Assembly: GCA_966212075.1 (NCBI GenBank)
Contig: CBIHOM010000010.1
Location: 50,573 to 114,572 of the forward strand
DNA from: an uncultured Fluviicola sp.
Lineage (GTDB): Bacteria > Bacteroidota > Bacteroidia > Flavobacteriales_D > Crocinitomicaceae
Length of the DNA: 64,000 nucleotides
Reading direction: 5' to 3'
Shown one piece after another: positions 1-41,678 of this stretch; within the stretch, counting starts at the first letter, position 1, and every line of letters begins with the position of its first letter. A program made the position numbers and the translations under genes. Under the pieces are notes generated by a model. The model was not told where the DNA came from, made no database searches, and saw only the letters and a program-made list of their open reading frames with translations.

Positions 1-40
1 CAACTACCGCTAAACTGATTGAAAATATAAAACGTGCCAT
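1..40 (-). CDS. 5' end of a probable secreted protein running off the window (MARFIFSISLAVV...)
   Basis: ATG at 40 after A-rich context (aaaaattaagagtATG); hydrophobic signal-peptide-like N-terminus; frame open to the window edge. Confidence 0.5.
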   Translation of the reverse strand, partial: MARFIFSISLAVV

Positions 41-246
41 ACTCTTAATTTTTAATGAACCGTTTCAGCCTGGTAATGAGATATAGACAACAACTATACC
101 AAGCAAAAAAAGTTACATTGCAAGTATGGCCGGCAAGAACTAAATCGTTTTCATAACACTGGAAAAATCACATTGAAAACACGCAAACCACCAGTGTTTA
201 CTGGCCATTCGCATTTTAACACTTTTATACTTTTCCAAAAGAGTGA

Positions 247-313
247 TAAATATACCCTTCGAAAAGGATCAGGAAAGTCATTCAAAATGAAAGTCGGTTT
301 TTTCAATTTGAAA
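247..313 (-). promoter_or_regulatory. Tandem TTCA-N3-TGAA palindromes plus a -7-like box upstream of the partial gene
   Basis: TTCAAAATGAAA 281-292 and TTCAATTTGAAA 302-313 (21-bp period); TATATTTA on the minus strand at 254-247. Confidence 0.5.
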
Positions 314-318
314 ACAAA

Positions 319-939
319 TCACTCCAAACCATTCTTCATCGCCCATTTCAGCAAAACGTTCTTTTCTTTTGGAAGACCCAATTTTTCAATAATATTGGAA
401 CGGTGTCCTTCAATGGTTTTTTCTGACAGGAAAAGCATTTCTGCAATCTGCTTGCTTGTTTTTTGCTGCGCGATCAGCTCGATGATCTTCCGCTCCGAAA
501 AGGTTAGTTTATCCAATTCACCGGTCCCTGTTTCCCGGACACTTACCAGGTCACTCATCAACGAATCACTCACGTACTGGTTTCCTTTCGCCACTTCAGC
601 CAGACAATTTTTCAATTCAACCTGTGCATGCTCCTTCAGAATGTAGCCATAAACTCCGTATTCTTTCGATTTATTGTAAATCGTCATCTCATTGTGCATG
701 GTCAACAGGATGATTTTGGTCCTGAGTTTCAGCTCCTGTACTTTCTTGGCAACATCCAGGCCATCCATTGCCGGCATGTTGATATCCAAAATAGCAATGT
801 CCGGAGTCCGGAGCTGGATCATGTTTAAGGCTGAAACGCCATTTGCACAGGTTGCAATAACCTGGTATCCGTAAGATTCCACAAAACTCTGGGTTCCCTG
901 TAGTGTAAAGGGATGATCGTCAGCAATTACGACTGTCAT
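319..939 (-). CDS. NarL/FixJ-family response regulator (REC + LuxR HTH)
   Basis: VVIADDH, ILDINMP phospho-Asp, LLTMH, YILK; LTFSER...IAEMLFLSEKTIEGHRSNI LuxR-type HTH. Confidence 0.95.
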   Translation of the reverse strand: MTVVIADDHPFTLQGTQSFVESYGYQVIATCANGVSALNMIQLRTPDIAILDINMPAMDGLDVAKKVQELKLRTKIILLTMHNEMTIYNKSKEYGVYGYILKEHAQVELKNCLAEVAKGNQYVSDSLMSDLVSVRETGTGELDKLTFSERKIIELIAQQKTSKQIAEMLFLSEKTIEGHRSNIIEKLGLPKEKNVLLKWAMKNGLE

Positions 940-2927
940 GTTGTTTTCTTTAAGTCAATAGTGATTATGGTACCGTTTTTATCGGAGTGAATTTTTGCAT
1001 GTCCCCCGATAGCTTTACTCCTTTGAATGATATTATGTAAACCGAACGCATCTTTTTTTGAAAGAGTTTCAGGCACATTAAATCCTTTTCCGTTGTCTTT
1101 TATTTGGATCATCAAGTCTTCTTGGCTTTCACGGATAATAATTTTTGCAGCCACGGCATCCGCATACTTGATAATATTGGAAAGTGCCTCCTGGATAATC
1201 CTGTAAACCTGCAACTCCTCTGAAACAGATAAGGAACTGCAATAAACGATATCCGAAGTAACCATCAATTGGTTCACAGACTGTGCACGATCCAGCAACT
1301 GATTGATACTTGCAGACAATCCTACTTTCTCAAACATCACAGGATGCAGGTTCCGGCTGATACTGCGTATGTCTTTAATGATCATGTCGATCTTCTCTCC
1401 GGAAACAGTTTTGTCTTCCAATGAATGTTTCAGGTTCAGCAACTCATGGCTCACACTGTCGTGCAGGTCACTTGCAATACGTCTTCGCTCCTCTTCTGTT
1501 TTATCCAGCAAACGCTTGGTGTATTGTTTGGCACGTTTATTCTCCTGTTTAATCTTTTTCTGTTTCTGACGGGAAAAAACAATAAACACCATTAGGATCA
1601 AACCCATCAGAAGAGAAAACAATAATGCAATGGTCATCTTCCCTTGATAGATCGTTTCTTTTTGCAATGCAATTTGCCGTTCCTTTCGCTCGGTTTTATG
1701 AAATTTATCCAACTCCATGGTCTTCGCGATGATTCGCTGATCACTGATCTTATTCTCAGCCTCTTTCAGTTTTTCGGAATAAAAATAAGCAAGCCGGTAA
1801 TTTTTTGTCAGGACTGCATTGTCTTTGAGAACCTCTGCAAAGGCAATTTGATTTTGATGATCTTCCTGTTCTTCAGCAATTTGCAAAACCCGCTTTATCA
1901 ATTGAATATCCTGAATCCCTTCTCCCGAACCGATCTGGTATTCAGCGAGTGAAATCAGGTATTCAATATCAGATGTCGGAGCATTTAATTCATCTGCGAG
2001 CACTTTCATGCGATCCAGGATTTCTTTTGCTTCCCAAATCCGTTTTTTTTGAAGTAAACTCTGTACGTAAAAACTCGACAAAGAAAGTTCCAGTGATTCA
2101 TCAATCAGTTTACTCCTTTTAAATAGAGAATAAGTTGAATCAATGAGCTTATATTGATCCCGGTGTTCCATTTCCTGGTAAAGAATAATCTTGTTATACA
2201 GCGATGTGAACATATTGACAGTATCATTTACTTTTTTAAAGGCTTTCATTGCCTTATTAAAGTAAGCATCCGCATCTTTGTAGTTTTTGGTGTAAAGGCT
2301 TACAAGCGCAAGGTTATCATAGACTCCTCCTTTTCCGGTAATATCATCTGTTTTATTAAACCATTGAAGTGCCTTTAAATCATTTTGAAGCGCTTTTTCG
2401 TGCTCACCCATAGCAAAATAGCAGAATGCCATATCGCCATAGCCGTGTGCAACGTCGACACACGTATAATAATCAGTTGGTTTATTTCTGACCAGGCTCC
2501 GGAAGTACGGCAATGCTTTCCGGTATTCATTCTGATTGATGTTGTAATTTCCCTGGTACGAATCGATGAAAAGTGTCTGGTCCCATGGAAGCTTGGCTTT
2601 AAAGTATTTTTTGAACTTCCGAATTTTATTCAGGGTACTTTCCCGGAAAAGGGAGAAATACATTTCCTGTTCCGCCAATTCCCCTAATGCGATCGCTGCT
2701 TTGTCATAATGTCCGAGTTTCAGATGCTTTTTATAATAGGCATTGAATACAGGATAAAAGGTAGAATCGTGAAAATGGGCTCTTTTTGAAAGCCAGATGC
2801 AGGTGTCATCCAGGTGTGTCCTTGTTTCCTCGTGATAAATAACTTCACTGTCAGGTTCGCTGCATGCACCTGAAAAAAGCAGTAACAGTAATGCGACACC
2901 CAAAAGTTTTGTTAATCGTTTATTCAT
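936..2927 (-). CDS. TPR-containing sensor histidine kinase (HisKA_3 type)
   Basis: Likely start at 2927 (ORF open to 2972) with signal LLLFSGAC; TPR-like helices; TM helix; ERRRIASDLHDSV H-box; IIQEALSNIIKYA, DNGKGF, GLHNI; 4-bp overlap with the regulator. Confidence 0.92.
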   Translation of the reverse strand: MNKRLTKLLGVALLLLLFSGACSEPDSEVIYHEETRTHLDDTCIWLSKRAHFHDSTFYPVFNAYYKKHLKLGHYDKAAIALGELAEQEMYFSLFRESTLNKIRKFKKYFKAKLPWDQTLFIDSYQGNYNINQNEYRKALPYFRSLVRNKPTDYYTCVDVAHGYGDMAFCYFAMGEHEKALQNDLKALQWFNKTDDITGKGGVYDNLALVSLYTKNYKDADAYFNKAMKAFKKVNDTVNMFTSLYNKIILYQEMEHRDQYKLIDSTYSLFKRSKLIDESLELSLSSFYVQSLLQKKRIWEAKEILDRMKVLADELNAPTSDIEYLISLAEYQIGSGEGIQDIQLIKRVLQIAEEQEDHQNQIAFAEVLKDNAVLTKNYRLAYFYSEKLKEAENKISDQRIIAKTMELDKFHKTERKERQIALQKETIYQGKMTIALLFSLLMGLILMVFIVFSRQKQKKIKQENKRAKQYTKRLLDKTEEERRRIASDLHDSVSHELLNLKHSLEDKTVSGEKIDMIIKDIRSISRNLHPVMFEKVGLSASINQLLDRAQSVNQLMVTSDIVYCSSLSVSEELQVYRIIQEALSNIIKYADAVAAKIIIRESQEDLMIQIKDNGKGFNVPETLSKKDAFGLHNIIQRSKAIGGHAKIHSDKNGTIITIDLKKTT

Positions 2928-3121
2928 CAACAGCGAATTTCGCTTTAAAAATACCTGTTTGAAACGGATCAAACGCTTTCTGATCTAAAATTGAGGGTTT
3001 CCCCTTAGTTGACAAAACAGGTAAATAACGGACATTTGCGCATATTAAATCGGGTACATATTTACCCGTTTAACCAAAGCAAACTAATAAACAACCCTAT
3101 AACAACTACTTGTAGCGTAAG

Positions 3122-3160
3122 AAAAAATCCTCCATCAGTAAAAACCGACGGAGGATTTTT
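3122..3160 (-). terminator. Intrinsic terminator
   Basis: aaaaatcctcc/ggaggattttt stem; the inner stem pairs through G.U wobbles only on the minus strand; U-tract follows. Confidence 0.75.
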
Positions 3161-3255
3161 GTCTAATACACCCTCATTATAACATGTTTTTTCCGACGAT
3201 GTAACTTTACGCAAGTGTAAGTGGTTGCATATTTTATTTCAATGAATAGTCAGTT

Positions 3256-3289
3256 AAAAGAGCAGAGGTCGCTACTACCTCTGCTCTTT
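3256..3289 (-). terminator. Intrinsic terminator after the 139-aa gene
   Basis: 13-bp perfect stem aaagagcagaggt/acctctgctcttt, 7-nt loop. Confidence 0.75.
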
Positions 3290-3359
3290 CCTGTGAAAGC
3301 TAACATTAGGTTTTGTTGTTGTAGTTCTTGTTTCAGTGTATAGCGGTGGTAATATCTTT

Positions 3360-3779
3360 TTACATTGCGGCTTTTTCGCTATTAATTTCTTGTTGTAGTG
3401 TGTTAATTGCACTTTTCAACTGGTGGATAAAACTTCTGCTTGGGAACTGATCGGTAATCGATTCCGGAAAGTCTGAAGGGATATCCATCCCATTGGCGTA
3501 GTGCAGGTACAATACATAATAGTTCTTCAAATACTCATTTTGAATAGCCAAATACGTATTCACCGTGTTCATTTTATTCGCTATCGCTGTCATCAGCAAC
3601 TGTTTATAAGACCTGTCAGGAAACTTATCCAGATGCTTCTGAGGAAAATCAAAGGACAACATTTCTCCGTTGGAAAAATGCCAATACAATTCAAAATAAG
3701 ACTCCAACTCGTTGATCTCACTCAAAACCATTTCAGCATCCGGAAGTGGTGAAAGCCCTATTTCTGCACATATTTCCAT
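3360..3779 (-). CDS. Hypothetical protein of two tandem 59-aa repeats
   Basis: ATG after gaagaaaa; upstream -7 box and downstream terminator; residues 28-66 align to 87-125. Confidence 0.8.
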   Translation of the reverse strand: MEICAEIGLSPLPDAEMVLSEINELESYFELYWHFSNGEMLSFDFPQKHLDKFPDRSYKQLLMTAIANKMNTVNTYLAIQNEYLKNYYVLYLHYANGMDIPSDFPESITDQFPSRSFIHQLKSAINTLQQEINSEKAAM

Positions 3780-3830
3780 TTTTCTTCACTTAGCCCGCAA
3801 CCCTTGTCAGAATTGCACTGTTGACAGGAA

Positions 3831-3898
3831 CAAGTATAGGGCGATTGCAGATACGAAAGCAGCAGAATGTCATGAAATACGAAATCGATGTCATGAAA
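3831..3898 (-). promoter_or_regulatory. Putative LytTR-binding direct repeat and -7 promoter box
   Basis: ATGTCATGAAA exactly at 3867-3877 and 3888-3898; TATACTTG on the minus strand at 3838-3831. Confidence 0.65.
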
Positions 3899-4167
3899 AG
3901 AAGAAAAGAAAGCATGGAATTTTTTTCAATCGTCAATGATGAATGAAAAAGAGCCATCTTTTCTTTATTTCAGGGTGTTTTGAATCCGTTACAAATAACA
4001 GGAGAGGGACTTTTGAAATAAGATCTGATCTTTTTTAGCGGATTGATACTAGTTGACAAAATGCACAATTACAGTTTTGCCTGCTTTTCCTGCCTTGGCG
4101 AAAAGTAGGGAGAAAAGAGGATTATTGGGAGGTGTTGGAAATTCAACCGGGCAACACTGATTGATAA

Positions 4168-4914
4168 TTACTTAATAATCTTGAATTGGTTCAGAACCTC
4201 TTTGTAGTGGTCACTGATGGGAATATGTGATTTATTGCTCATCACCAATAAACCATCGGACGGTTGGATCTCTTCGATTTCATGTGCATTCACAATGTGA
4301 TTGCGGTGCACACGGTAAAATTTAGCCGGATCCAGCAGGTTGATCACTTTCGTAAGCGAGATCTGGATCACAAACTTTTCGGCTCCTGTAAAAATGGAGC
4401 AATAACGCTCCTCTACTTCAATATTGATGATATCGGAAACCGCTACTTTTTTAAGCGCATCCTTTTTCTTAATGAATAAAAAATCGGAACTGATAACCGT
4501 ATCTTCCTCATCACTTTGAAAGATGTCAGGCTGACCATAGAATTTCTCTATCGCCATTTCCAATGCGTAAAGTACTTCCAATGGATTAAATGGTTTCAAC
4601 AAAAAACTGTATGGTTTTGTCAATTTTGCACGCTCAAAAATACTTCGATCCGTAGAGCTGGTAAGAAAAACAAAAGGCCTGGATGACTCCGGAACATTAT
4701 TAAGCGTCTCAGCAAAAGTGATCCCTTCAGGAATTCCATTGAGGAAAATATCGATCACCACAATGTCTACTTTGTTTGCGTAAAAAAGCTGCAACGCTTC
4801 CTGGTGCGATCGTGCCACACCTACAATGTCGAATTGACTTTCCGTCAATGTATCAATCAATTTATCACTCTCAGCTACCGTATCTTCAACAATCAGGACC
4901 TTAATTTTTTCCAT
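4168..4914 (-). CDS. LytTR-family response regulator
   Basis: VLIVED, VVIDIFL, FLTS, FLLKPF receiver motifs; C-terminal FYRVHRNHIVN LytTR signature. Confidence 0.95.
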   Translation of the reverse strand: MEKIKVLIVEDTVAESDKLIDTLTESQFDIVGVARSHQEALQLFYANKVDIVVIDIFLNGIPEGITFAETLNNVPESSRPFVFLTSSTDRSIFERAKLTKPYSFLLKPFNPLEVLYALEMAIEKFYGQPDIFQSDEEDTVISSDFLFIKKKDALKKVAVSDIINIEVEERYCSIFTGAEKFVIQISLTKVINLLDPAKFYRVHRNHIVNAHEIEEIQPSDGLLVMSNKSHIPISDHYKEVLNQFKIIK

Positions 4915-6655
4915 CAGCACATTTCTTTAGGGTAACGATCAGCTTCGTTCCCTCATTTTGTCGACTCCAAATATCTAATTTCCCGTCGTTTTTTGCTAGC
5001 ATTGCGCGACATAAATTCATCCCCAGGCCGGAACCAATTGTTTTTTCGTGGTCTTTTTTCGTTAATTGCGGTGAATCACTCAGCAATTTCAGGCGGGTTT
5101 CTTCCGACATTCCCCTTCCGGTATCTTCCCAGACAAACACGACACTGTCTTCACGTTCACTTTCCAGGCTAACCGAGATATGTGAACCCGGATCTGAAAA
5201 CTTGATGCTGTTATCCATGAAATTACGCAATACGATCTTGATCGATTCAGCGTCCACAAACACTTTTATTGCTTTTGGCACCGTGTTCTCAAACATAATC
5301 CCTTTCTGATGCAACACTCCTTTGAAATTAAATGCCACTTGGTCAATCAACATGCTTAAGCGATGTTCCTCCTGCTTAAAATAACCGCCTTCGGTTTGCA
5401 GGAGCGCCCAATTCAATAAATTATCGAGCATGTTGTAGGTATTGGTTGCAATCACACTGTTTTCTTCCAATTGATTTTCCAAACTGCTGTATTCCTGTTT
5501 TTGAACCTTGTCCTTCAATTTGGTATTGCTGACACTTAACGCGTGCACTGATGATCTCAGGTCATGGCTGACAATGGAGAACAACTGGTCTTTGGTTGCA
5601 TTCAGGAGGTCCAACTCCTGCTTTTGGCGCAAAATTACCCGTGAGCGCAATACATTCTGGCGGTAAAAGTAAGTCCCGAAAATCACAATTGCCATCAGGA
5701 GCAAGGCAGCAAAAAGATAAGTATTTAACCGGGCTTGTTTCAGTTTATTTTCGGTTTCCAATAACTCTACACGCTTCTGTTTATCTGCTATTGCTAGTTT
5801 TTTTTCTATTTGGGCAACTTCGTATATTTTGTTTTGATCGCTGAGTGAATCGTTCCAGCTTTCATATTCCTTCCGGTAATTTAGAGCCAGGTCATAACGT
5901 TTCCGGTTCTCCTCCACTACCGCCATATTATTAGCCGATTTTAATTTTAGCTCTATAGAACCATATTTTTTAGACAGCCAATATGCCTTCTCAAAATAGG
6001 CAATGGCTTTTTCGTCGAGGTATTGCTCATAATAAACGCTGCCCAGGTTCGTATAAACATCAATTAGTGAAGTGTAATCTTTTCGTTCCTCTATCTTTTG
6101 AGCAGCCTGAAGCAAATACTTTTCAGATTCCATGTAATTTCCCAAATGCAGGTAACAAACCCCCATATTCTGCAACAAGGCATCGATTCGAATCGTTTGA
6201 ATGTCCTTTCTATGGGTTGTATCGATCGTTTTAAATAAACCCAAAGCCTGATGGTATTTTTCCTGTGAAAAGAAAATCCCTCCTTTATTGAAACGAATCA
6301 TGGTGTGGAATTCAAAATCTTTTCGAACCAGGTCAAATTCCTTCAAGGCATACTTGAAAATTCCTTTTTTATGAAATGCTTCTGCCCGGTAATAGTGGAT
6401 AAAATCGAGTATTTTTTTGTTTCGGATCTGTTGCAAACATTTTTGAGTATTCACCAATACCGAATCCCAGTTTTCGTCCTTCGCAAAAGCAATTGTCATG
6501 GATAAAGCCCTTAAATTCGGTTGCCTGGCAGCCAGCTCACTTGCTTTTTGATCAATAAAACGATTACTTTCATCACGTTTGGCAAAGGAATGAAAGGAAA
6601 TCAAAAAAAGTGCCCCGAGCAGAGACACTTTTAATTTATGTAGGAATGTATTCAA
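4901..6655 (-). CDS. TPR-containing sensor histidine kinase (HisKA + HATPase)
   Basis: Signal peptide; TPR motifs (LLQNMGVCYLHLGNY, YTNLGSVYYEQ); TM helix; FSIVSHDLRS H-box; LRNFMDNSIKFS, DTGRGM, GSGLGM. Confidence 0.95.
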   Translation of the reverse strand: MNTFLHKLKVSLLGALFLISFHSFAKRDESNRFIDQKASELAARQPNLRALSMTIAFAKDENWDSVLVNTQKCLQQIRNKKILDFIHYYRAEAFHKKGIFKYALKEFDLVRKDFEFHTMIRFNKGGIFFSQEKYHQALGLFKTIDTTHRKDIQTIRIDALLQNMGVCYLHLGNYMESEKYLLQAAQKIEERKDYTSLIDVYTNLGSVYYEQYLDEKAIAYFEKAYWLSKKYGSIELKLKSANNMAVVEENRKRYDLALNYRKEYESWNDSLSDQNKIYEVAQIEKKLAIADKQKRVELLETENKLKQARLNTYLFAALLLMAIVIFGTYFYRQNVLRSRVILRQKQELDLLNATKDQLFSIVSHDLRSSVHALSVSNTKLKDKVQKQEYSSLENQLEENSVIATNTYNMLDNLLNWALLQTEGGYFKQEEHRLSMLIDQVAFNFKGVLHQKGIMFENTVPKAIKVFVDAESIKIVLRNFMDNSIKFSDPGSHISVSLESEREDSVVFVWEDTGRGMSEETRLKLLSDSPQLTKKDHEKTIGSGLGMNLCRAMLAKNDGKLDIWSRQNEGTKLIVTLKKCADGKN

Positions 6656-6668
6656 ACAGAATATCGGT

Positions 6669-7088
6669 TTAATTCTCAGTGGTTCTTACAGAAGTCATAA
6701 TGCCCCGTGAAGTTTTCGGACCAACTGTATTAACCAGTAAATTGTATACTGACAGGATCGCACCTAAATCAATACCTCGTCCGCCCGCATCAGTTGCAGA
6801 CGCTTGAAAGGAACAAGTTATCGATTGAGGGGTTGCAGATGAACTTGAACCGTAAACAGCATAAAACTGGAGGTTGGATGCATTATCAGGAGTATAATAT
6901 TGTTTGATAGATACTTGATTCGGATTCAAATCTCCTGGAATCGTAAATGTCATTATGACAATTAGTTTCCCGGTTCCAGTGTTGTATTCCGCATCAATAG
7001 CAGTTGGATCTGCTAAGTTCGGTGCACTCGTTGGAATGATTGGTACTGCAACCGGTTGAACAGTGTAAGTTTGAATGGTAGTCTCCAT
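6669..7088 (-). CDS. Hypothetical T/S/P-rich protein, first gene of the kinase operon
   Basis: ATG after aaaaaaagcgtt; 13-nt gap to the kinase start; no signal peptide; C-terminus GPKTSRGIMTSVRTTEN. Confidence 0.8.
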   Translation of the reverse strand: METTIQTYTVQPVAVPIIPTSAPNLADPTAIDAEYNTGTGKLIVIMTFTIPGDLNPNQVSIKQYYTPDNASNLQFYAVYGSSSSATPQSITCSFQASATDAGGRGIDLGAILSVYNLLVNTVGPKTSRGIMTSVRTTEN

Positions 7089-7482
7089 AACGCTTTTTTT
7101 TAGTTAGACAAAAGTTTGTAAATATGCTTTTTTTACACAAAAAAATAAAGAGTTCCCCAGTGAAAAAAACGGAATTTTTGGTTTCCCTGTTACGCAAGAA
7201 CACTCAATTTATCGGCTTTTAAAAATAGCCTAAATTTTGTTTAAAAGCTTACAAAAATCAATTAATATCAAATTTTACTAAACAGATTTGTTTAAATAAC
7301 AAATCCGAAATTTCATTGACAGGCAATTTCAACCTGTTCACTCAATTTTCGGGTTAATTCAACATCTTTTGTATTCAAACTGACCCCATCCTCCGTAGCT
7401 TTATAGCATAGAAAGAACTTATAGCGTAAAAACAAGATCTTTCAGGAATACAACTTATACTAGCAACTCTTGTTCGGTTAGG

Positions 7483-7518
7483 AAAAAAACCGCAATCTCC
7501 CATCGATTGCGGTTTTTT
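7483..7518. terminator. Bidirectional intrinsic terminator
   Basis: aaaaaaccgcaatc/gattgcggtttttt. Confidence 0.8.
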
Positions 7519-7534
7519 ATTTTCATATTTAAAC

Positions 7535-7596
7535 TCCGCCGGCGAGAATATCCCTGCTTATCCTCCGCTGGCGCGAGTGTCTTGCTCGTACCCTAC
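7535..7596 (-). repeat. REP-like imperfect palindrome plus a degenerate tandem copy
   Basis: GTAGGGTACGAGCAAGACACTCGCGCCAGCGG on the minus strand (7596-7565); second CTCGC-CGGCGGAG near 7535-7547. Confidence 0.55.
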
Positions 7597-8351
7597 CCCA
7601 CAATCCCTACACTCACCCCATCCGCCAAGACATAAAGCGCGCCGTTCTTCTCCTGCAAAAATGCGATCGCCACAACCCCAATCCGTGAATGAATCCCCAT
7701 CGGGTCAATAACACATGTAAAATCAGCTGGCGGCATGGAATTTTCAAGGGAAATAATGGATTCCGGTGCCGGGTAAACGATATATCGATTAGTTTCAAAA
7801 TCGAGCGAAACAATAGCCGCTTTTATTTGAACATGAGTAGCACCTTTCGGAGCATTGAAAAAGTCACGGGCTGGCGCGAGCATCATACTCGTGTCACTGG
7901 CAAAACAAATAACACCCGTCATCATATCACAACTGATTCGCCCGGTATAGACAGCAGAAATAGGCCTTGCAGCATAAAATGCAAACGATCGCAGAAGCTC
8001 CCGCGAACTTGACTCGTCAAATACCGTCGCTGGATTTCGCATACCGCGAATCGCAGAAAGATCATGCTTCCCCATTCGGATTAAAATCCCCGTTAATCGT
8101 TGGGAAACAATTGAATCTCCCGTAAATGCCGTCGACGCTCTTACTGCCCGCCGGATAAGTTTCCCTGCAACAGCTGCAAGCGCAAATTCAGCAGCATTTT
8201 CACGGGTTCGTGCAAACTGCTCATTGCGTAGTACCTGCTCCCTGTCCGGTCCGCCCTTCTGTCTGACGAGATAACCATACTGCTTATTGTGATAAAATGA
8301 AAGGTCGCCTAGCTTGCCTTTAAATCGAAGTGGTCCTGCCTGATGTGCCAT
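7593..8351 (-). CDS. Hypothetical protein (Bacteroidota family starting MAxQxG..xxxGxxGxxxFY)
   Basis: 252-aa ORF with ATG; basic N-terminus with RTRENAAEF; family recalled from memory, no function known to me. Confidence 0.8.
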   Translation of the reverse strand: MAHQAGPLRFKGKLGDLSFYHNKQYGYLVRQKGGPDREQVLRNEQFARTRENAAEFALAAVAGKLIRRAVRASTAFTGDSIVSQRLTGILIRMGKHDLSAIRGMRNPATVFDESSSRELLRSFAFYAARPISAVYTGRISCDMMTGVICFASDTSMMLAPARDFFNAPKGATHVQIKAAIVSLDFETNRYIVYPAPESIISLENSMPPADFTCVIDPMGIHSRIGVVAIAFLQEKNGALYVLADGVSVGIVG

Positions 8352-8460
8352 AGTGAATAATGTTGGTTACAGGATACAACGTTCACCATAACGGATTAGT
8401 ACACAATAACATCATATTTAAACAACTTTTAACCTTATTACAAACTTGATTGATACAATA

Positions 8461-8495
8461 ATATCCCAGGGATATGGCATAGATAAAGCATAGAT
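8461..8495. promoter_or_regulatory. Operator-like palindrome and 11-bp-period repeat upstream of the 252-aa gene
   Basis: ATATCCC-A-GGGATAT 8461-8475; GCATAGAT at 8477-8484 and 8488-8495. Confidence 0.35.
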
Positions 8496-8530
8496 ATAGT
8501 TATGAATGTTAAAATTTGAAGTATAAATAT

Positions 8531-8701
8531 CAGACTCACGCTCACACTAAATAAAATAGTTTAAACCAATTTCTTCCTCATTCTCGTTCTCATTCTCGCT
8601 TTGAAAGAAAAAAGCATCTGGAGAAAATTGGTCAGAATGAGAAACTGAATGAGAATGATGTAAAAGAAAATGCTATCGAAATGAAAGTGAGTTTGAGTCT
8701 G
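8531..8701. repeat. Nested inverted repeats built from CTCA/CTCATT units
   Basis: Outer CAGACTCACGCTCAC (8531) vs GTGAGTTTGAGTCTG (ends 8701); inner CTCATTCTCGTTCTCATTCTC (8577-8597) vs GAATGAGAAACTGAATGAGAATGA (8635-8658). Confidence 0.6.
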
Positions 8702-8796
8702 TTAAACAACACTAAAATATTAGGTTAATGATTATGAATATTGTTTCTTGTTTAGAAGATATAGATAAAAATTATTCACTAAAAAATCAGATAGTC

Positions 8797-8967
8797 ATGT
8801 TAAAATGGACAGCAGTATTTCTTGTTATCGCACTTATAGCTGCGATATTCGGATTTGGAGGGGTCGCAGAAGCAGCGGCTTCCATAGCAAAAGTTATATT
8901 CTTTATTTTCATTGCTCTCGTAGTAATCACTGGGATCATTGGGTTTACCGCGATCAAAAGGAAATAA
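8797..8967 (+). CDS. DUF1328 (UPF0391) small membrane protein
   Basis: MLKWTAVFLVIALIAAIFGFGGVAEAAASIAKVIFFIF matches the family pattern. Confidence 0.9.
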   Translation: MLKWTAVFLVIALIAAIFGFGGVAEAAASIAKVIFFIFIALVVITGIIGFTAIKRK

Positions 8968-9044
8968 GAAGAATCGGATATAACTTTCAGATTCAATTTT
9001 ATGGTTGAAGAAATTCTCGTATTTAAGAGGGAAGAGAAGGAAAT

Positions 9045-9083
9045 AAAAAAAGGGAAGCTATCAATTGATGCTTCCCTTTTTTT
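9045..9083. terminator. Bidirectional intrinsic terminator
   Basis: aaaaaaagggaagc/gcttcccttttttt. Confidence 0.8.
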
Positions 9084-9161
9084 GTGATCCTATTGAGAGA
9101 TATTTCGAACTATTTGGTGGAGGATTTGGAACAGATTGTCAGAGTCCTTACTACAATTTAA
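9079..9161 (+). mobile_element. Putative att-site remnant related to the tRNA-Lys 3' end
   Basis: TTTTTGTGATCC at 9079-9090 and 15931-15942; GTGATCCTATTGAGA vs GTGATCCCGCTGGGA (11/15, all mismatches transitions), then TCGAAC. Confidence 0.45.
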
Positions 9162-9336
9162 ACCCTCATCCATATCTGAAAAGAAAGGGAAACAAGACTA
9201 TTACAATGAAGTTTTTACTATACCCGATTTAGACATTTGGTTTGATGCAAAAATTAAACATAAACTAGTTACTATCAGTCTCTTCATTTTCAAATAATTG
9301 ATTTCGGCAAATAGTGTAACTTTGAAAAAAAAGCGA

Positions 9337-10902
9337 ATGATTAAATGTTCTTTATTCCTTCTTCTTACGATACTAAGCTACAACTGTTTTTCACAAGATT
9401 TGGACAAAAAAGCAAAGAAAGCAATAGCGCTAGCGGAAAAAGGAGAACTCGATGAGTCCTTTCGAATATTCATTGAAATCAAAAAAGAATATAAAAGAAG
9501 GGGAGATATAGAAGGAACCGCAGACGTATTAAACAATATCGGTCGGATTTATTATATGATGAACAATTTTCCGGAGGCCAGAAGGAATTTTCAACAAAGT
9601 TACCTCATCTACCAATCTCTCGGCGATAAAACCTCTCAGGCACAGTTGATTATGAATATTGGTGCCACGTATGAGACCGACAACTCAAAGGAACTGGACA
9701 AAGCCTTGAAATATTACCGGAAAGGATACCAAATGTACAGTAAATTAAATGATAGTGTTGGGATCAATCGATCTTTGCTGAATATGGGAACAATCTTCGG
9801 GCGGCAAAATGAAAGCAGGAAAGCATTGAATGTCTATCTGAAAGCCCTACCCTTTTTGGAACGTAGTGGAACTGAAAATGACCGGATTGCCATTTACGCC
9901 AACATAGGTACCAGTTTTTATGAACTCAATGAAGCTGATTCGTCGCTTCCTTATTTATACAAAGCTAAGTCAAAGAGAGGAAACCTTGAATACGATATTT
10001 ATATCAACAGAACTCTAGCCAAAGTCTATGCGAAACTCAATAGACCCGATAGTGTAAACCATTATATAGATCTCTTCTCACAGGTAAAAGATAAATTACA
10101 GGACGAACAAACAATGAGAAGTATTACTGAAATATCTCAGAAATATAAATCTCAGGTCAAGGAAGAAGAAATCGAGAAACTGAAACTCGGAAAAAAAAGA
10201 GACCGCCTCTGGCTCACTTTAATTGTTTTGGCTCTTGTTGGTATGGTTGTGATACTAGGACTCCTTTTCAGAAACCGCATGATCCGATCCGATCAGCAGA
10301 AAACAGAGCTGGAGCACCGCATTCTAAGGGCTCAAATGAATCCGCATTTTTTGTTCAATTGTCTTTCCAGTATTCAGCGCATGTATATTGAAGGAGATAT
10401 CCAGAGAGCCAATGACCTGACGGCTGATTTTGGCACTTTACTTCGTCAAATACTTGATCACACAAGCCAGTCACGAATTCGGCTGAAAGAAGAACTAGAT
10501 ACACTGCAATCTTATATGCAGATTGAACAAATTCGACTGGGAGAAAAATTCCAGTTCGATATAATCGTTGATGAAAACCTCAATATAAATAATCTATTGG
10601 TTCCACCGCTCATTAGCCAGCCAATTGTGGAAAATGCTATCTGGCATGGGATTGTTCCACTTGAAGGTAATGGAAAAATAATCGTTCGATGCAATTTAAG
10701 CAGTGATGAAAAACTGCTTATTTTAGATATTACCGATAATGGAGTTGGTTTTTTTTTAGAGGAATCCCCCCGGAAACGCTCCTCAAAGGGAATAGAACTT
10801 GTTGAAAAACGATTAACATCAAAAGGGTTTCTTCAAATCAACAAGCGGAAAGAGGGAGGAACGAGAGTAACGATTAATTTACCGGTTGAGTATGAAGATT
10901 AG
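9337..10902 (+). CDS. TPR-containing LytS/YehU-type sensor histidine kinase
   Basis: TAACTTTG -7 box at 9317 supports the 9337 start; TPRs; TM helix; LRAQMNPHFLFNCL; QPIVENAIWHG; DNGVG. Confidence 0.95.
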   Translation: MIKCSLFLLLTILSYNCFSQDLDKKAKKAIALAEKGELDESFRIFIEIKKEYKRRGDIEGTADVLNNIGRIYYMMNNFPEARRNFQQSYLIYQSLGDKTSQAQLIMNIGATYETDNSKELDKALKYYRKGYQMYSKLNDSVGINRSLLNMGTIFGRQNESRKALNVYLKALPFLERSGTENDRIAIYANIGTSFYELNEADSSLPYLYKAKSKRGNLEYDIYINRTLAKVYAKLNRPDSVNHYIDLFSQVKDKLQDEQTMRSITEISQKYKSQVKEEEIEKLKLGKKRDRLWLTLIVLALVGMVVILGLLFRNRMIRSDQQKTELEHRILRAQMNPHFLFNCLSSIQRMYIEGDIQRANDLTADFGTLLRQILDHTSQSRIRLKEELDTLQSYMQIEQIRLGEKFQFDIIVDENLNINNLLVPPLISQPIVENAIWHGIVPLEGNGKIIVRCNLSSDEKLLILDITDNGVGFFLEESPRKRSSKGIELVEKRLTSKGFLQINKRKEGGTRVTINLPVEYED

Positions 10903-11641
10903 GGCAATTATTGTTGACGATGAGAAAGATATTCGTTTTCTTCTGCGCAAAATGCTGGAGGAACACTTCAATCATATTATAGACATTGCAGGAGAAGCGG
11001 AAGATATCGCAGCAGCTTCAATATTGATAGATCAGGAAGTTCCCCAATTGATCTTTCTTGATATCAAAATCAAAAATAAAACCGGATTCGATTTACTTGA
11101 AAAGTATAAAGACAAGGATTTTGAAGTCATCTTTATTACTGCTTACGATCAATATGCCATCAAAGCATTTGAGTTTAGTGCAATTGGCTATTTAATGAAG
11201 CCTGTTAAGCTGGAAAAGCTTCGGAAAATTATCGAAAGATTGACGAACAACCTGAATCGCATGAAAGAAGATCCCAATAAGCGAATAAAAATCCTTATTG
11301 ACAATTATGACGGTAATGGTATTAAGAGAATTTGTATAGCAAGTGTGGAAGGTTTTGATGTGCTCGAACTTGACCAAATCATTCGTCTTGAAAGTGATAA
11401 TAATTATACGGATTTTATTACTTCGGGTGGTGGAAAATACACCACAAGCAAGACGATCAAGGAATACGAAGATATCCTTGATGAGTTTGGCTTTTACCGG
11501 ATTCATCAGAGACACATTGTCAACTTGCGGCAAGTGAAATCCTATCAGAAAGGTGACGGCGGGACTATCATACTGAATGACGGTACGGAACTGCCACTCG
11601 CAAGACTGAGAAAACCCGGATTTTTGAAACGTTTTTTATAA
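10892..11641 (+). CDS. LytTR-family response regulator
   Basis: AIIVDDE, IFLDIKI, FITAYDQYAIKAFEFSAIGYLMKP; FYRIHQRHIVN. Confidence 0.95.
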   Translation: MKIRAIIVDDEKDIRFLLRKMLEEHFNHIIDIAGEAEDIAAASILIDQEVPQLIFLDIKIKNKTGFDLLEKYKDKDFEVIFITAYDQYAIKAFEFSAIGYLMKPVKLEKLRKIIERLTNNLNRMKEDPNKRIKILIDNYDGNGIKRICIASVEGFDVLELDQIIRLESDNNYTDFITSGGGKYTTSKTIKEYEDILDEFGFYRIHQRHIVNLRQVKSYQKGDGGTIILNDGTELPLARLRKPGFLKRFL

Positions 11642-11771
11642 GATTCTCTTTTTCTGATGTCTGGTTCTAATTGAGAACTACCTAAATCTAAATCTTGCGG
11701 GTATTAATACTATCCAAAATAAAAGAATTGTATTTTTAACTGCGAATTTTGTTTAAATAACATCTTAAATT

Positions 11772-14700
11772 ATGATAAAGCAAACCTCCCTACTGATTCT
11801 GATCTTTTCCGGATTGTTTTTCTCAAAATTGCAGGCTCAGTCTGTCGTTTATGTTACCAACCTTGCTGATAGCGGACCGGGTTCATTACGCAATAAGATC
11901 TCTGCAGCTTTTCCGGGGGATACAATCCGCTTTCAAGTAACCGGGACCATCTTTCTTAGTTCAGGAGAATTGAACTTTAATAAAAATCTTGTTATTGATG
12001 GGCCGGGAGTTTCTTTACTTACAATTACATCGGTTTCGTCTGATCGTTTATTTATTATTAGTGGCCAAATCACAATTTCGAAGCTGAGGTTGCTGAACGG
12101 ATACTCAAGTACAGGAATGTATTCCGGAGGAATTACCTGTACGGGAGGAACACTGCGGTTAAACCATGTCAAGTTTGAAAATTGCACAGCAGCAGACCTT
12201 GGAGATATTCCAAGAGGAGGAGCATTGAGAGCCAGTTGTGATAGCCTTTTTGTTAATCATTGTGATTTTATCAATAATGGAGTTACCTCTACAAAATATG
12301 CTACTAGTGGAGGAGCAATTTATGCATATGCCATAAAACAGATTATTCGTAATAGCACCTTCGATTCGAATCAGGTTGATGCCGGTGCTGATACACAAAA
12401 TGGAGTGCATACAGCAACCGGGTACGGAGGTGCGGTACATCTGGTTGCGAAAACAAACAGTGTATTATTGGTTGATAGCTGTCAATTTACCAATAATGTC
12501 TGTAATGCCGTTTGTCTATATTCCGCAGGAGCATACCAAGGACAGGGACATGCTTATGGTGGAGCGATACACATAGATGGTCTTCACAATCAATTAAGTT
12601 CAGCTATAAACAACAGCACTTTTACAGGAAATCTTGCAAATGGTACAGGAGTGGGTGGTAATCGCAGTTTATCTTTCGGTACTATTTCACTGATGACTGT
12701 ACCTTCTTCAACTAAAATAACCGCACTTAATAACCTCATCCTTGATAACAATGAAGCCATAGGAACCAGCAGTTATGCGGGGGTAGGTGCCATTTATTCG
12801 TTTCACGGCGGAATTACAATGAATAACCTCAAGGTAACGAATAACACGTCTTATTATGAAGCGATAAAAGTAGACGAAAGTTCTTATGCCAGAATAGAAT
12901 GGTCCTCCATTTCCGGGAATTCTTCCGGTGGGTTGAGGTTGAGACAAGTCGATAGTTCAGATGTGAAAAATAATCTGTTTAGTAACAATGGTAAGGTTGC
13001 GCTGCAATTAGATCAGTTAACAGGTGCTAATACTACTGCCAACTCTACATTTACTGGCAATACTTCCGTTCAGGGAAGTGCGATGCGCATAGAATTCTGT
13101 ACAGGACCAGTCACTGTTTTGAATTGTACCATGATGGATGATACAGTAACTGTGGCAGGTATGGCTGTAGAAATGTATCTATACAACTCACCGCAAGTAT
13201 ACTTGAAAAATAATATTATATCAACCCCTACATTTACCTCTGATCCACTTGTTCAATCATCCAGTACCAGCATAATCAGCCAGGGTGGAAATATTGTTCG
13301 TGATGCTACTTTGTCGCTTTTCCTGGTGCAGGCTAACGATATGAATTCCACAGACCCAATGCTTGGAACTTTTGACGATCACGGCGGCCCGACAAAAACA
13401 TTTAATTTACTCGCTTCCAGTCCGGCAATTAACCTAGGAGGAACCGATACACTTACAATTGACCAACGTGGTTTTTTAAGAGATGTACAATCGGATGCCG
13501 GAGCATTTGAAAACAACGCTACCAATCCCAACAATCCTGTTGTAATGAATCTGTCAAACGACACAACCATTTGTGCATTGCAGACAATTACATTATCAGT
13601 TACTTCCAACAACATTCCACAAGACCCAATCGAATACCAATGGAAAAAGGATAATGTGAATGTTCCAGGCGCGAATACCCCATCATTAAGTATTACTCCT
13701 TCTGCTGCCGGGATATTTAATTACACATGTGAACTATCAAACAATTCAGCATCTGTCATCAGTGATACGATTACAGTTACAGTAAATTCGTTACCTGTAG
13801 TTGATGCAAGCAACTCAACCTCCATTTGTGCAGGGGGTAATACATCGATTTCAGCTATCGGAGCAACTACCTATTCCTGGAACAACGGCCTTGGAACAGG
13901 TAGTTCACATACCGTTTCTCCTGGTTCAACAACGATTTATACGGTTACAGGAACAGATGGAAACGGATGTCAGAATACGGACCAGGTTACGATTACTGTA
14001 AACCAATTGCCATTGGTTGATGCCGGCAATGCTGCATCGATCTGTATTGGAAACAACACTACTATTTCTGCTTCAGGAACTGTTTCTTATTCCTGGGATA
14101 ATGGTCTTGGAGCAGGTAGTTCACATAGCATTGCCCCTGCTTCAACAACGACATACACTGTTACCGGAACAGATGGAAATGGGTGTCAGAATACAGACCA
14201 GGTTACGATCACTGTGAATCAATTGCCAGTAGTTGATGCAAGCAACTCAACTGCCATTTGTGCAGGAAGTAATACAACGATTTCAGCTACCGGAACTGTT
14301 TCTTATTCCTGGGACAATGGCCTTGGGACTGGTAGTTCACATACTGTTTCTCCAACTTCAACAACAACATACAATGTTACCGGAACCGATGTGAACGGAT
14401 GTCAAAATACGGACCAGGTTACGATTACTGTGAATCAATTGCCAGTAGTTGATGCGGGCAATTCAAGTACTATTTGTGCCGGAAATAATGCTACAATTTC
14501 AGCTACCGGAGCAACTTCTTACTCTTGGAACAATGGCCTTGGAGCAGGCAGTTCACATAGTGTTTCTCCTACTTCAACAACCTTATACACGGTTACAGGA
14601 ACAGACGGAAACGGGTGTCAAAACACCGATCAGGTTACAATCACTGTGAATCAATTACCACTAATTGATGCGGGCAGTGCTACATCGATTTGTATTGGTG

Positions 14701-41536: not shown

Positions 41537-41678
41537 TAAGAAAAAGCGAATAGCTTTTGATAATTGAACAAGCGTTAGCGCGGTTCAACAAAGAGGATTA
41601 AATTTAAGAAAAAGCGAATAGCTTTTGATAACTGAATCCGCCGCGGCTGATTAGTGCGGAAATAATTTAGGAGAAGCG
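41537..41678. repeat. Repeat cluster related to 37011-37170, opposite orientation
   Basis: 27-bp TAAGAAAAAGCGAATAGCTTTTGATAA at 41537 and 41605; 41651-41678 is the exact reverse complement of 37021-37048. Confidence 0.85.

Follow-up and report, generated by a model that had tools for sequence, protein, structure and literature searches.

What is a small protein with no counterpart in the family databases doing directly in front of a sensor kinase, and what does the response regulator encoded beside that kinase control? Both questions are raised by a four-gene locus of an uncultured Fluviicola species. It lies in a stretch of 64,000 nt (the window; contig CBIHOM010000010.1, positions 50,573 to 114,572), which comes from a metagenome-assembled genome (MAG) of 4.15 Mb in the genus Fluviicola. 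Our analysis points to a conserved two-component cassette in which the small protein, A, would be an input-side component, and in which a LytTR box would drive the last gene, D, and a second gene on another contig, C14; taken as a whole, we consider this explanation reasonably probable. Open reading frame (ORF) calling gives four co-oriented genes, with coordinates counted in the window:

6669-7088, minus strand: gene A, ORF of 139 amino acids (aa), leaderless, predicted nine-strand beta-sandwich, C-terminal tail NTVGPKTSRGIMTSVRTTEN
4901-6655, minus strand: sensor histidine kinase, ORF of 584 aa, assigned from Pfam and hydropathy
4168-4920, minus strand: response regulator with REC and LytTR domains, ORF of 250 aa, overlapping the end of the kinase gene
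3360-3779, minus strand: gene D, ORF of 139 aa, all-helical, leaderless, two copies of a unit of ~55 aa, predicted output

The A stop codon and the kinase start codon are 13 nt apart, and the kinase and regulator genes overlap by 20 nt if the regulator begins at its GTG, or by 14 nt if it begins at the ATG at 4914. A preliminary description of this DNA, made from the letters alone, had listed four co-oriented minus-strand genes with a 13-nt gap followed by an overlap, all of which is present in the sequence. In the kinase, Pfam recognizes TPR_12 (4.7e-13) and HATPase_c (2.2e-18); hydropathy completes the layout with an N-terminal signal or anchor segment, a TPR domain at residues ~26-306, a second transmembrane segment (TM2) at 307-332, and an H-box, SHDLRSS, ahead of HATPase_c. 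Since one N-terminal segment and a strong membrane span at 307-332 precede the H-box, the TPR region is assigned to the periplasm. The best NCBIfam match of the kinase is Porphyromonas FimS (NF053520; 145.8 bits, 1.4e-42), far below the cut-off of 600 bits for that family. The regulator combines a receiver domain (Response_reg, 1.9e-13, residues 8-119), with the Asp of a VVIDIF motif at the expected phospho-acceptor position, and a DNA-binding domain (LytTR, 3.4e-19, residues 156-245) that scores above its 22.6-bit cut-off.

To place A, we examined which genes accompany it and its kinase in other genomes. Wherever the flanking sequence sufficed, at more than 35 loci from at least two orders of Bacteroidia, an A gene lies directly upstream of an orthologous TPR kinase. 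Orthologs of the regulator occur in 14 of 25 sampled Fluviicola genomes, at 49-98% identity, and 16 other families of the same order have none; in the genomes that carry them, the kinase ortholog lies next to the regulator gene, with an A-like gene directly 5' of the kinase, as far as the contigs reach. The cassette is also present in the cultured Fluviicola taffensis. Beyond Fluviicola, the kinase downstream of A again has TPR and HATPase_c domains and is 35-49% identical to the window kinase. The same synteny is found there on five metagenomic or NCBI contigs; in a Flavobacteriaceae MAG, Asprobacillus argus and a Salibacteraceae MAG; in three other genera of the same family; and, within a second order of Bacteroidia, at 10 of 10 loci. 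A gene for a REC-LytTR regulator follows the kinase wherever the sequence reaches, with one exception, genome G016, in which A, kinase and D are contiguous (L014, contig C11), the regulator is encoded elsewhere (L022, contig C12), and a perfect box before D is kept.

The reverse search agrees: every kinase ortholog of at least 35% identity with a readable upstream region (L056 has none) is preceded by a gene with a TSRGT tail. A kinase paralog in G237 (32% identity) follows a 164-aa gene that lacks the tail motif and was not counted as a member of the A family. The layout is far from unique to this genome. The preliminary description had proposed to look for homologs of A that are not linked to such kinase-regulator pairs; because the A-kinase synteny emerges from both search directions, and every A gene with enough flank lies directly upstream of an orthologous kinase, that test fails to refute the association.

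A itself has no match in Pfam, NCBIfam, PHROGs or PADLOC. AlphaFold2 builds its nine strands with a predicted local distance difference test (pLDDT) score of 90.6, and a Foldseek search of this model against the PDB gave nothing significant (best E 0.065, NigD-like, TM-score 0.34). A profile search with HMMER across 1.84 billion representatives collected 169 clusters (50% identity) at E<=1e-3, of which 48 reach E<=1e-10. Almost all members are 130-270 aa long, and the profile match extends to the C-terminus. The hallmark of the family is a C-terminal tail, (D/G/N)P(K/R/E)TSRGTxTTV, in which the window protein ends as GPKTSRGIMTSVRTTEN; its first part, (D/G/N)P(K/R/E)TSRG, stands 14-19 residues from the end in 126 of the 146 representatives of up to 450 aa. 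Two of these 146 have a hydrophobic N-terminus, one from a mis-called start and the other unlike a signal peptide. A Pfam scan of ten diverse representatives gave no credible match. We also considered A as a distant relative of PixA/AidA (PF12306), with which it shares a "W-D/N-x-DP" look, and rejected this, since there is no Pfam match and hhalign of the A family with PixA-like outputs returned a probability of 0.1%. The most divergent A-like genes of Fluviicola (L019-L021) are missed by BLAST yet carry a C-terminal DPKTSRGT(V/M)TT(V/I). Similarly, the first A profile (A3) missed very divergent A-like genes of genera g23 and g35, which were recovered upstream of kinase orthologs; the search for related loci set out from a narrower A alignment and used a restrictive pattern.

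Does A evolve with any particular part of the two-component system? Identity to the window proteins ranges over 20-58% for the A body, 29-74% for the periplasmic domain of the kinase, 33-89% for the kinase core and 32-98% for the regulator (REC and LytTR domains). Across 16-21 loci, which are not independent of one another, pairwise divergence in the last 24 residues of A rises and falls with divergence in the periplasmic TPR domain, with Spearman coefficients of 0.75-0.83 and partial Mantel values of 0.73-0.81 (p=0.001). Tail divergence is unrelated to that of the kinase core and of the regulator (partial Mantel ~0, p 0.15-0.95), two parts that track each other at 0.83. Individual loci illustrate the pattern: L016 and L018 combine degenerate tails (IPVSSRN and TPVTSRG) with by far the most divergent TPR domains, and in L030 and L035 the tails are canonical and the TPR domains well conserved despite the most divergent kinase cores and regulators. 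The covariation argues that the A tail and the sensor domain may form one functional unit.

On the output side, the stretch between the regulator and D holds a candidate operator and promoter, and a likely terminator follows D:

3909-3919, minus strand: weaker third half-site TTCCATGCTTT, 21 bp upstream of repeat 1, with which it forms a 4-mismatch pair
3888-3898, minus strand: direct repeat 1, TTTCATGACAT, predicted distal LytTR half-site, kept in eight related genomes
3867-3877, minus strand: direct repeat 2, TTTCATGACAT, predicted proximal half-site, abutting the -33 region
3831-3838, minus strand: -7-like box TATACTTG, starting 28 nt past repeat 2 and ~52 nt before the D start codon
3256-3286, minus strand: probable intrinsic terminator of the D transcript, GAGCAGAGGT-AGTAGCG-ACCTCTGCTC-TTTT, read from the sequence

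Repeats 1 and 2 are perfect 11-mers with a 21-bp period, as the preliminary description had read them beside the -7 box before the fourth gene, and TATACTTG departs at one position from TAnnTTTG, the -7 consensus of the Bacteroidota. They are the only copies of the 11-mer in the window at up to one mismatch, and a scan of the whole 4.15-Mb genome with the 22-position pair returned one site with no mismatch, the next best having four. The terminator is missing from the output of a terminator scan because its T-run has only 4 T. In the eight relatives that carry D, the spacer between regulator and D measures 280-700 nt and is unalignable outside three blocks, which stand at near-constant spacing: the third half-site (TTCCATGCTTC), the two repeats, and CCTATACTTGT. 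The block ATTCCATGCTTCATTTT around the third half-site is kept in relatives, and L017 likewise has three half-sites in phase. Box and -7 box precede D at fixed spacing in L009-L014, L023 and L025; CCTATACTTGT is near-invariant in 8 of 9 rows, with L014 diverging, and its distance to the repeats is constant apart from a shift of 1 nt in L012 alone. Even the D ortholog of G016, which is 37% identical, has CCATTTCATGACATAG twice in front of it, 21 bp apart. Such conservation, together with the rarity of the box genome-wide, argues against chance, and repeat box and -7 box together read as a clear phylogenetic footprint of a putative operator plus promoter.

D, like A, has no match in Pfam, NCBIfam or PHROGs, and hydropathy indicates no signal peptide; a PADLOC match to MkoA was marginal (E 0.0045), and this assignment was rejected. 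Residues 25-66 and 83-124 form an internal duplication (43% identity over 42 residues, E=4e-12). The AlphaFold2 model has a pLDDT of 91.9, and Foldseek found nothing significant for it in the PDB (best E 0.4). Homologs of D are confined to Fluviicola, where they occur in eight genomes, always at the cassette locus, and in none of the genomes that lack the cassette. Judged from this distribution and from the promoter region, D is very probably the regulated output of the system, with activation as the predicted direction. The preliminary description had cast D in that role, and the claim gains from the preservation of box and -7 box before D in eight genomes with unalignable flanks, from the restriction of D to this locus in cassette genomes, and from loci that lack D and keep the box.

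Box-like repeats with a 21-bp period lie just 3' of the regulator gene in the D-less loci L015-L020, and also in L027 and L042. What follows them differs between loci:

L015-L018, D-less: ~150 nt of non-coding sequence after the box, then an intrinsic terminator; a candidate small RNA
L019, D-less: a 213-aa orphan ORF after the box
L020, D-less: a 130-aa orphan ORF after the box
L021, D-less: a DUF1842 protein downstream of the regulator, with no clear box there

The non-coding stretches (L016:5200-5575, minus; L018:8570-8990, plus; L017:9630-10120, plus; L015:4400-5040, minus) each have a box and a -7 box in front, and those of L016 and L018 share the start GTTTTAGCnAGCAAGTAGTT. They look like small RNAs that would be driven by the regulator, in parallel with AgrA and RNAIII.

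Related cassettes have other outputs, which vary by lineage and are small and leaderless like D: inclusion-body proteins of the PixA/AidA type in L024, L032, L040 and L041, and RhiA-like, RebB and DUF2589 genes near others. PixA/AidA and RhiA proteins are regulated by density, stationary phase or quorum in proteobacteria and other bacteria; their presence here fits a sensor of population state without proving one. The Rfam motif DUF805 (RF03081) or DUF805b (RF02914) stands in front of many output genes of such related cassettes, at L024:9693-9761, L027:3266-3337, L032:6453-6520, L040:9191-9258, L041:9141-9208 and L042:8951-8989, and also in L030 (three copies), L020 and L021; in the window's own genome, it precedes a second predicted target on contig C14 (L071:1977-2008). 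No known RNA family was credible in window positions 1-12000, and D has no DUF805 or DUF805b leader.

Contig C14 provides a second candidate target. A box with four mismatches, TTTCATGACAC-N10-CCTCATGACAA, is found at 41643 on its minus strand (G000 C14:41049-41643, locus L071), in front of a leaderless orphan gene of 134 aa. Between them runs a leader of ~190 nt, in which a DUF805b-like RNA element scores 29.9 bits (E=1.2e-5), short of the gathering score. Six genomes, each of which bears the cassette, preserve the gene together with its box, leader and spacing, so that the box behaves as the site of a putative trans-acting factor that co-occurs with the cassette. Given conserved boxes at both C14 and D, the predicted regulon therefore comprises at least two promoters. 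The preliminary description called the module self-contained; this holds in part and not in the strict sense, since an unlinked promoter on C14 has a related box.

Together, these results suggest a scheme in which the kinase would sense a signal through its periplasmic TPR domain, as supposed for FimS, and would then phosphorylate the REC-LytTR regulator. The phosphorylated regulator would bind the in-phase half-sites (two perfect, one weaker), which abut a weak -33 region of a -33/-7 promoter, and its binding would activate a monocistronic D transcript; it would likewise activate at least one unlinked promoter, that of the 134-aa gene on C14. A would be an obligate third component on the input side, co-transcribed with the kinase. 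From sequence we infer phosphotransfer, DNA binding, an activating rather than a repressing effect, and any contact of A with the kinase. Most likely, A takes part in signal input to the kinase, as a partner or a modulator; its site of action may be the cytoplasm or, following unconventional release, the periplasm.

Several observations weigh against this scheme or against its more specific forms. A and 144 of the 146 representatives have no N-terminal hydrophobic segment or clear membrane span, and with a family that lacks signal peptides and a TPR domain in the periplasm, direct contact between the two needs an export route. AlphaFold2 builds the A tail into the beta-sandwich as strands, not as a free peptide. 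The covariation could reflect physical linkage, because the tail codons adjoin the 5' end of the kinase gene, and it is further limited by saturation of the A-body distances. Upstream of A, neither the window nor L009-L018 has a box at up to five mismatches, which leaves this locus without an autoinduction loop. The regulator ortholog of G016 (67% identity) is alone on its contig, unlinked from A, kinase and D. Finally, the stretch was traced to DNA metagenome runs and to no RNA run. As linkage could have produced the covariation, we retain three readings of A: a released signal, a cytoplasmic modulator, or an undefined partner on the input side. We commit ourselves to no more than an obligate input-side role for A.

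Is A the signal itself? It would then be a leaderless protein freed by lysis, vesicles or an exporter, with its tail, intact or proteolysed, bound by the periplasmic TPR domain, an idea that we hold as possible but rather unlikely; the corollary that the cassette is a protein or peptide sensor of cell density or kin damage, with a logic like that of agr, com and RNPP, is equally tentative. The strict A-kinase synteny and the covariation of tail and TPR domain speak for such a role, as do tandem A duplicates at L021 and L030, the first of which has a box-like repeat (5/22 positions mismatched) upstream of its two paralogs that would give positive feedback. The PixA/AidA-like and RhiA-like outputs belong to families that are quorum-regulated in other bacteria. 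A polypeptide ligand has been proposed by the authors who studied FimS (PMC11053733). Against these points stand the lack of a signal peptide across the family and of an exporter or protease gene in the cassette, the inability of a 15-kDa protein to pass the outer membrane unaided, the missing box upstream of A in the window, and the tail itself, which is the most conserved part of A whereas the specificity determinants of pheromones usually vary. The absence of export signals would suit a cytoplasmic connector or anti-kinase (like Sda/KipI, FixT or PII-NtrB) that docks on the kinase core or the regulator and tunes phosphotransfer to an intracellular cue. Tight translational coupling to the kinase (13 nt here, -4 to 40 nt in many loci) is in keeping with this, and conservation of the tail would be expected if the surface on which it docks is conserved too. 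Yet tail divergence follows the periplasmic domain and not the core or regulator, and L030 and L035 have canonical tails despite the most divergent cores and regulators; we regard this role, too, as a minority possibility.

A third alternative dispenses with signalling: A could be co-transcribed cargo or an output, for example a structural or storage protein, and the box a chance or unrelated element. The outputs of the cassette are also small leaderless orphan proteins, and the repeat of L021 precedes A paralogs. However, outputs switch between lineages, whereas A is invariably kept with the kinase across orders, and a chance box is at odds with its conservation and genome-wide rarity; we therefore find this alternative improbable. 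The reading of A as an input-side partner or modulator is the one we prefer. In the preliminary description, A was a ligand, precursor or modulator of the TPR sensor. Its tie to the kinase is upheld by synteny and by the covariation of tail and TPR domain, while a role as ligand or precursor is not established, in view of the periplasmic TPR domain, the 144 of 146 representatives without a hydrophobic N-terminus, and a cassette with no gene for export or processing. More speculative still, and in our view unlikely, is a generalization in which proteins with the DPKTSRG tail are the cognate ligands of a whole class of periplasmic-TPR kinases in Bacteroidia and reach the periplasm of sister cells via lysis, vesicles or export. 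If true, the cassette would be a protein-based sensor of kin damage or cell density, and the tail proteins the first identified signal class for FimS-like kinases.

Other features were noted within and around the cassette. A terminator-like hairpin with a T-run (window 6606-6632, minus strand) starts 37 nt past the A stop codon and overlaps the first kinase codons; it could attenuate read-through, so that A would be made in excess over kinase and regulator. Upstream of the cassette, a 252-aa ORF (window 7593-8351, minus strand) has no match in Pfam, NCBIfam, PHROGs or PADLOC and is not kept beside the cassette in relatives. Two more two-component systems with TPR sensors, of other classes, occur within 12 kb. 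One (window 319-2972, minus strand) has a HisKA_3 kinase and a LuxR-type regulator, and its position beside D is kept in L009-L013, L023 and L025; the other (window 9298-11641, plus strand) has a His_kinase (PF06580) kinase and a LytTR regulator that is ~25% identical to the regulator of the cassette. In L030, a 77-aa ORF (11279-11512, plus strand) repeats the C-terminal LytTR part of the regulator next to it almost unchanged; it is a LytTR fragment that stands alone or else what remains of a duplication.

The significance of the cassette lies first in its sensor. Bacteroidota have many sensor kinases with periplasmic TPR domains, and the signal of the one that has been studied, P. gingivalis FimS, is still unknown after two decades. 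The cassette supplies a genetically defined candidate partner for TPR kinases, a family of at least 169 clusters beside one kinase clade, and A may offer a lead to the signal of this kinase type, which has long been unknown. The predicted read-out is clean: a regulator box unique in the genome that would drive one or two small genes. Because cultured F. taffensis carries the cassette, direct tests of what TPR kinases sense become feasible. The analysis also defines two orphan protein families, A and D, with confidently predicted and unmatched folds, and links the unexplained DUF805 and DUF805b RNA motifs to small leaderless output proteins, such as PixA-like ones, under predicted LytTR control.

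How does the cassette compare with known systems? The preliminary description knew of no Bacteroidota system with this layout, and we likewise found no description of one in the literature. Among the closest systems is FimS/FimR of P. gingivalis, from the same phylum, whose kinase is the best NCBIfam match. FimS consists of a first transmembrane segment (TM1), periplasmic TPR repeats, TM2 and the kinase (PMC11053733), the architecture also seen here, and its TPR domain is thought to bind a polypeptide, the signal being unknown (PMC11053733; PMC5706477). The differences are considerable: the window kinase reaches 145.8 bits where the FimS cut-off is 600, its partner regulator is of the LytTR type, and no fimbrial genes are nearby. 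An A-like partner gene is unreported for FimS, although no search for one was made.

In its regulator, the cassette resembles the LytTR family at large, with REC and LytTR domains, a canonical operator geometry and predicted binding to it. The agr and com systems have LytTR direct-repeat operators, a small gene beside the kinase and a fast-evolving sensor part. The cassette shares with AgrC/AgrA, ComD/ComE and PlnB/PlnCD of the Firmicutes a REC-LytTR regulator, a predicted operator of direct repeats that lie about two helical turns apart (a 21-bp period) and immediately precede the promoter core, a small gene beside the kinase, and a sensor that evolves faster than the core and the regulator. 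In contrast to these systems, the kinase is a HisKA protein with two spans and a large TPR domain in the periplasm, not a polytopic HPK10-type protein with 5-7 spans; A is folded, leaderless and 139 aa long rather than a short exported propeptide; the cassette contains no AgrB-like or ComAB-like gene for processing or export, no transporter and no peptidase; and the operon has no box before it in this genome, a box-like site being present in L021 only. RNPP systems (PlcR/PapR, NprR/NprX, Rap/Phr) are alike in logic only, pairing a TPR protein with an adjacent small gene whose C-terminus is the candidate interacting element. Their receptors are cytoplasmic one-component proteins and their peptides carry Sec or dedicated export signals and are re-imported, whereas the TPR domain of the cassette is periplasmic and part of the kinase. 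Pairs of the LytS/LytR and BtsS/BtsR type, including the one at window 9298-11641, also join a LytTR regulator to a membrane kinase, and the window pair even has a TPR sensor. They differ in the His_kinase (PF06580) dimerisation domain, where the cassette kinase has a HisKA-like H-box, in the low identity of the regulators, and in having no A-like gene. Set against all of these, the core of the cassette is an ordinary phosphorelay, and what is new is a conserved third component, A, together with an output slot that varies by lineage.

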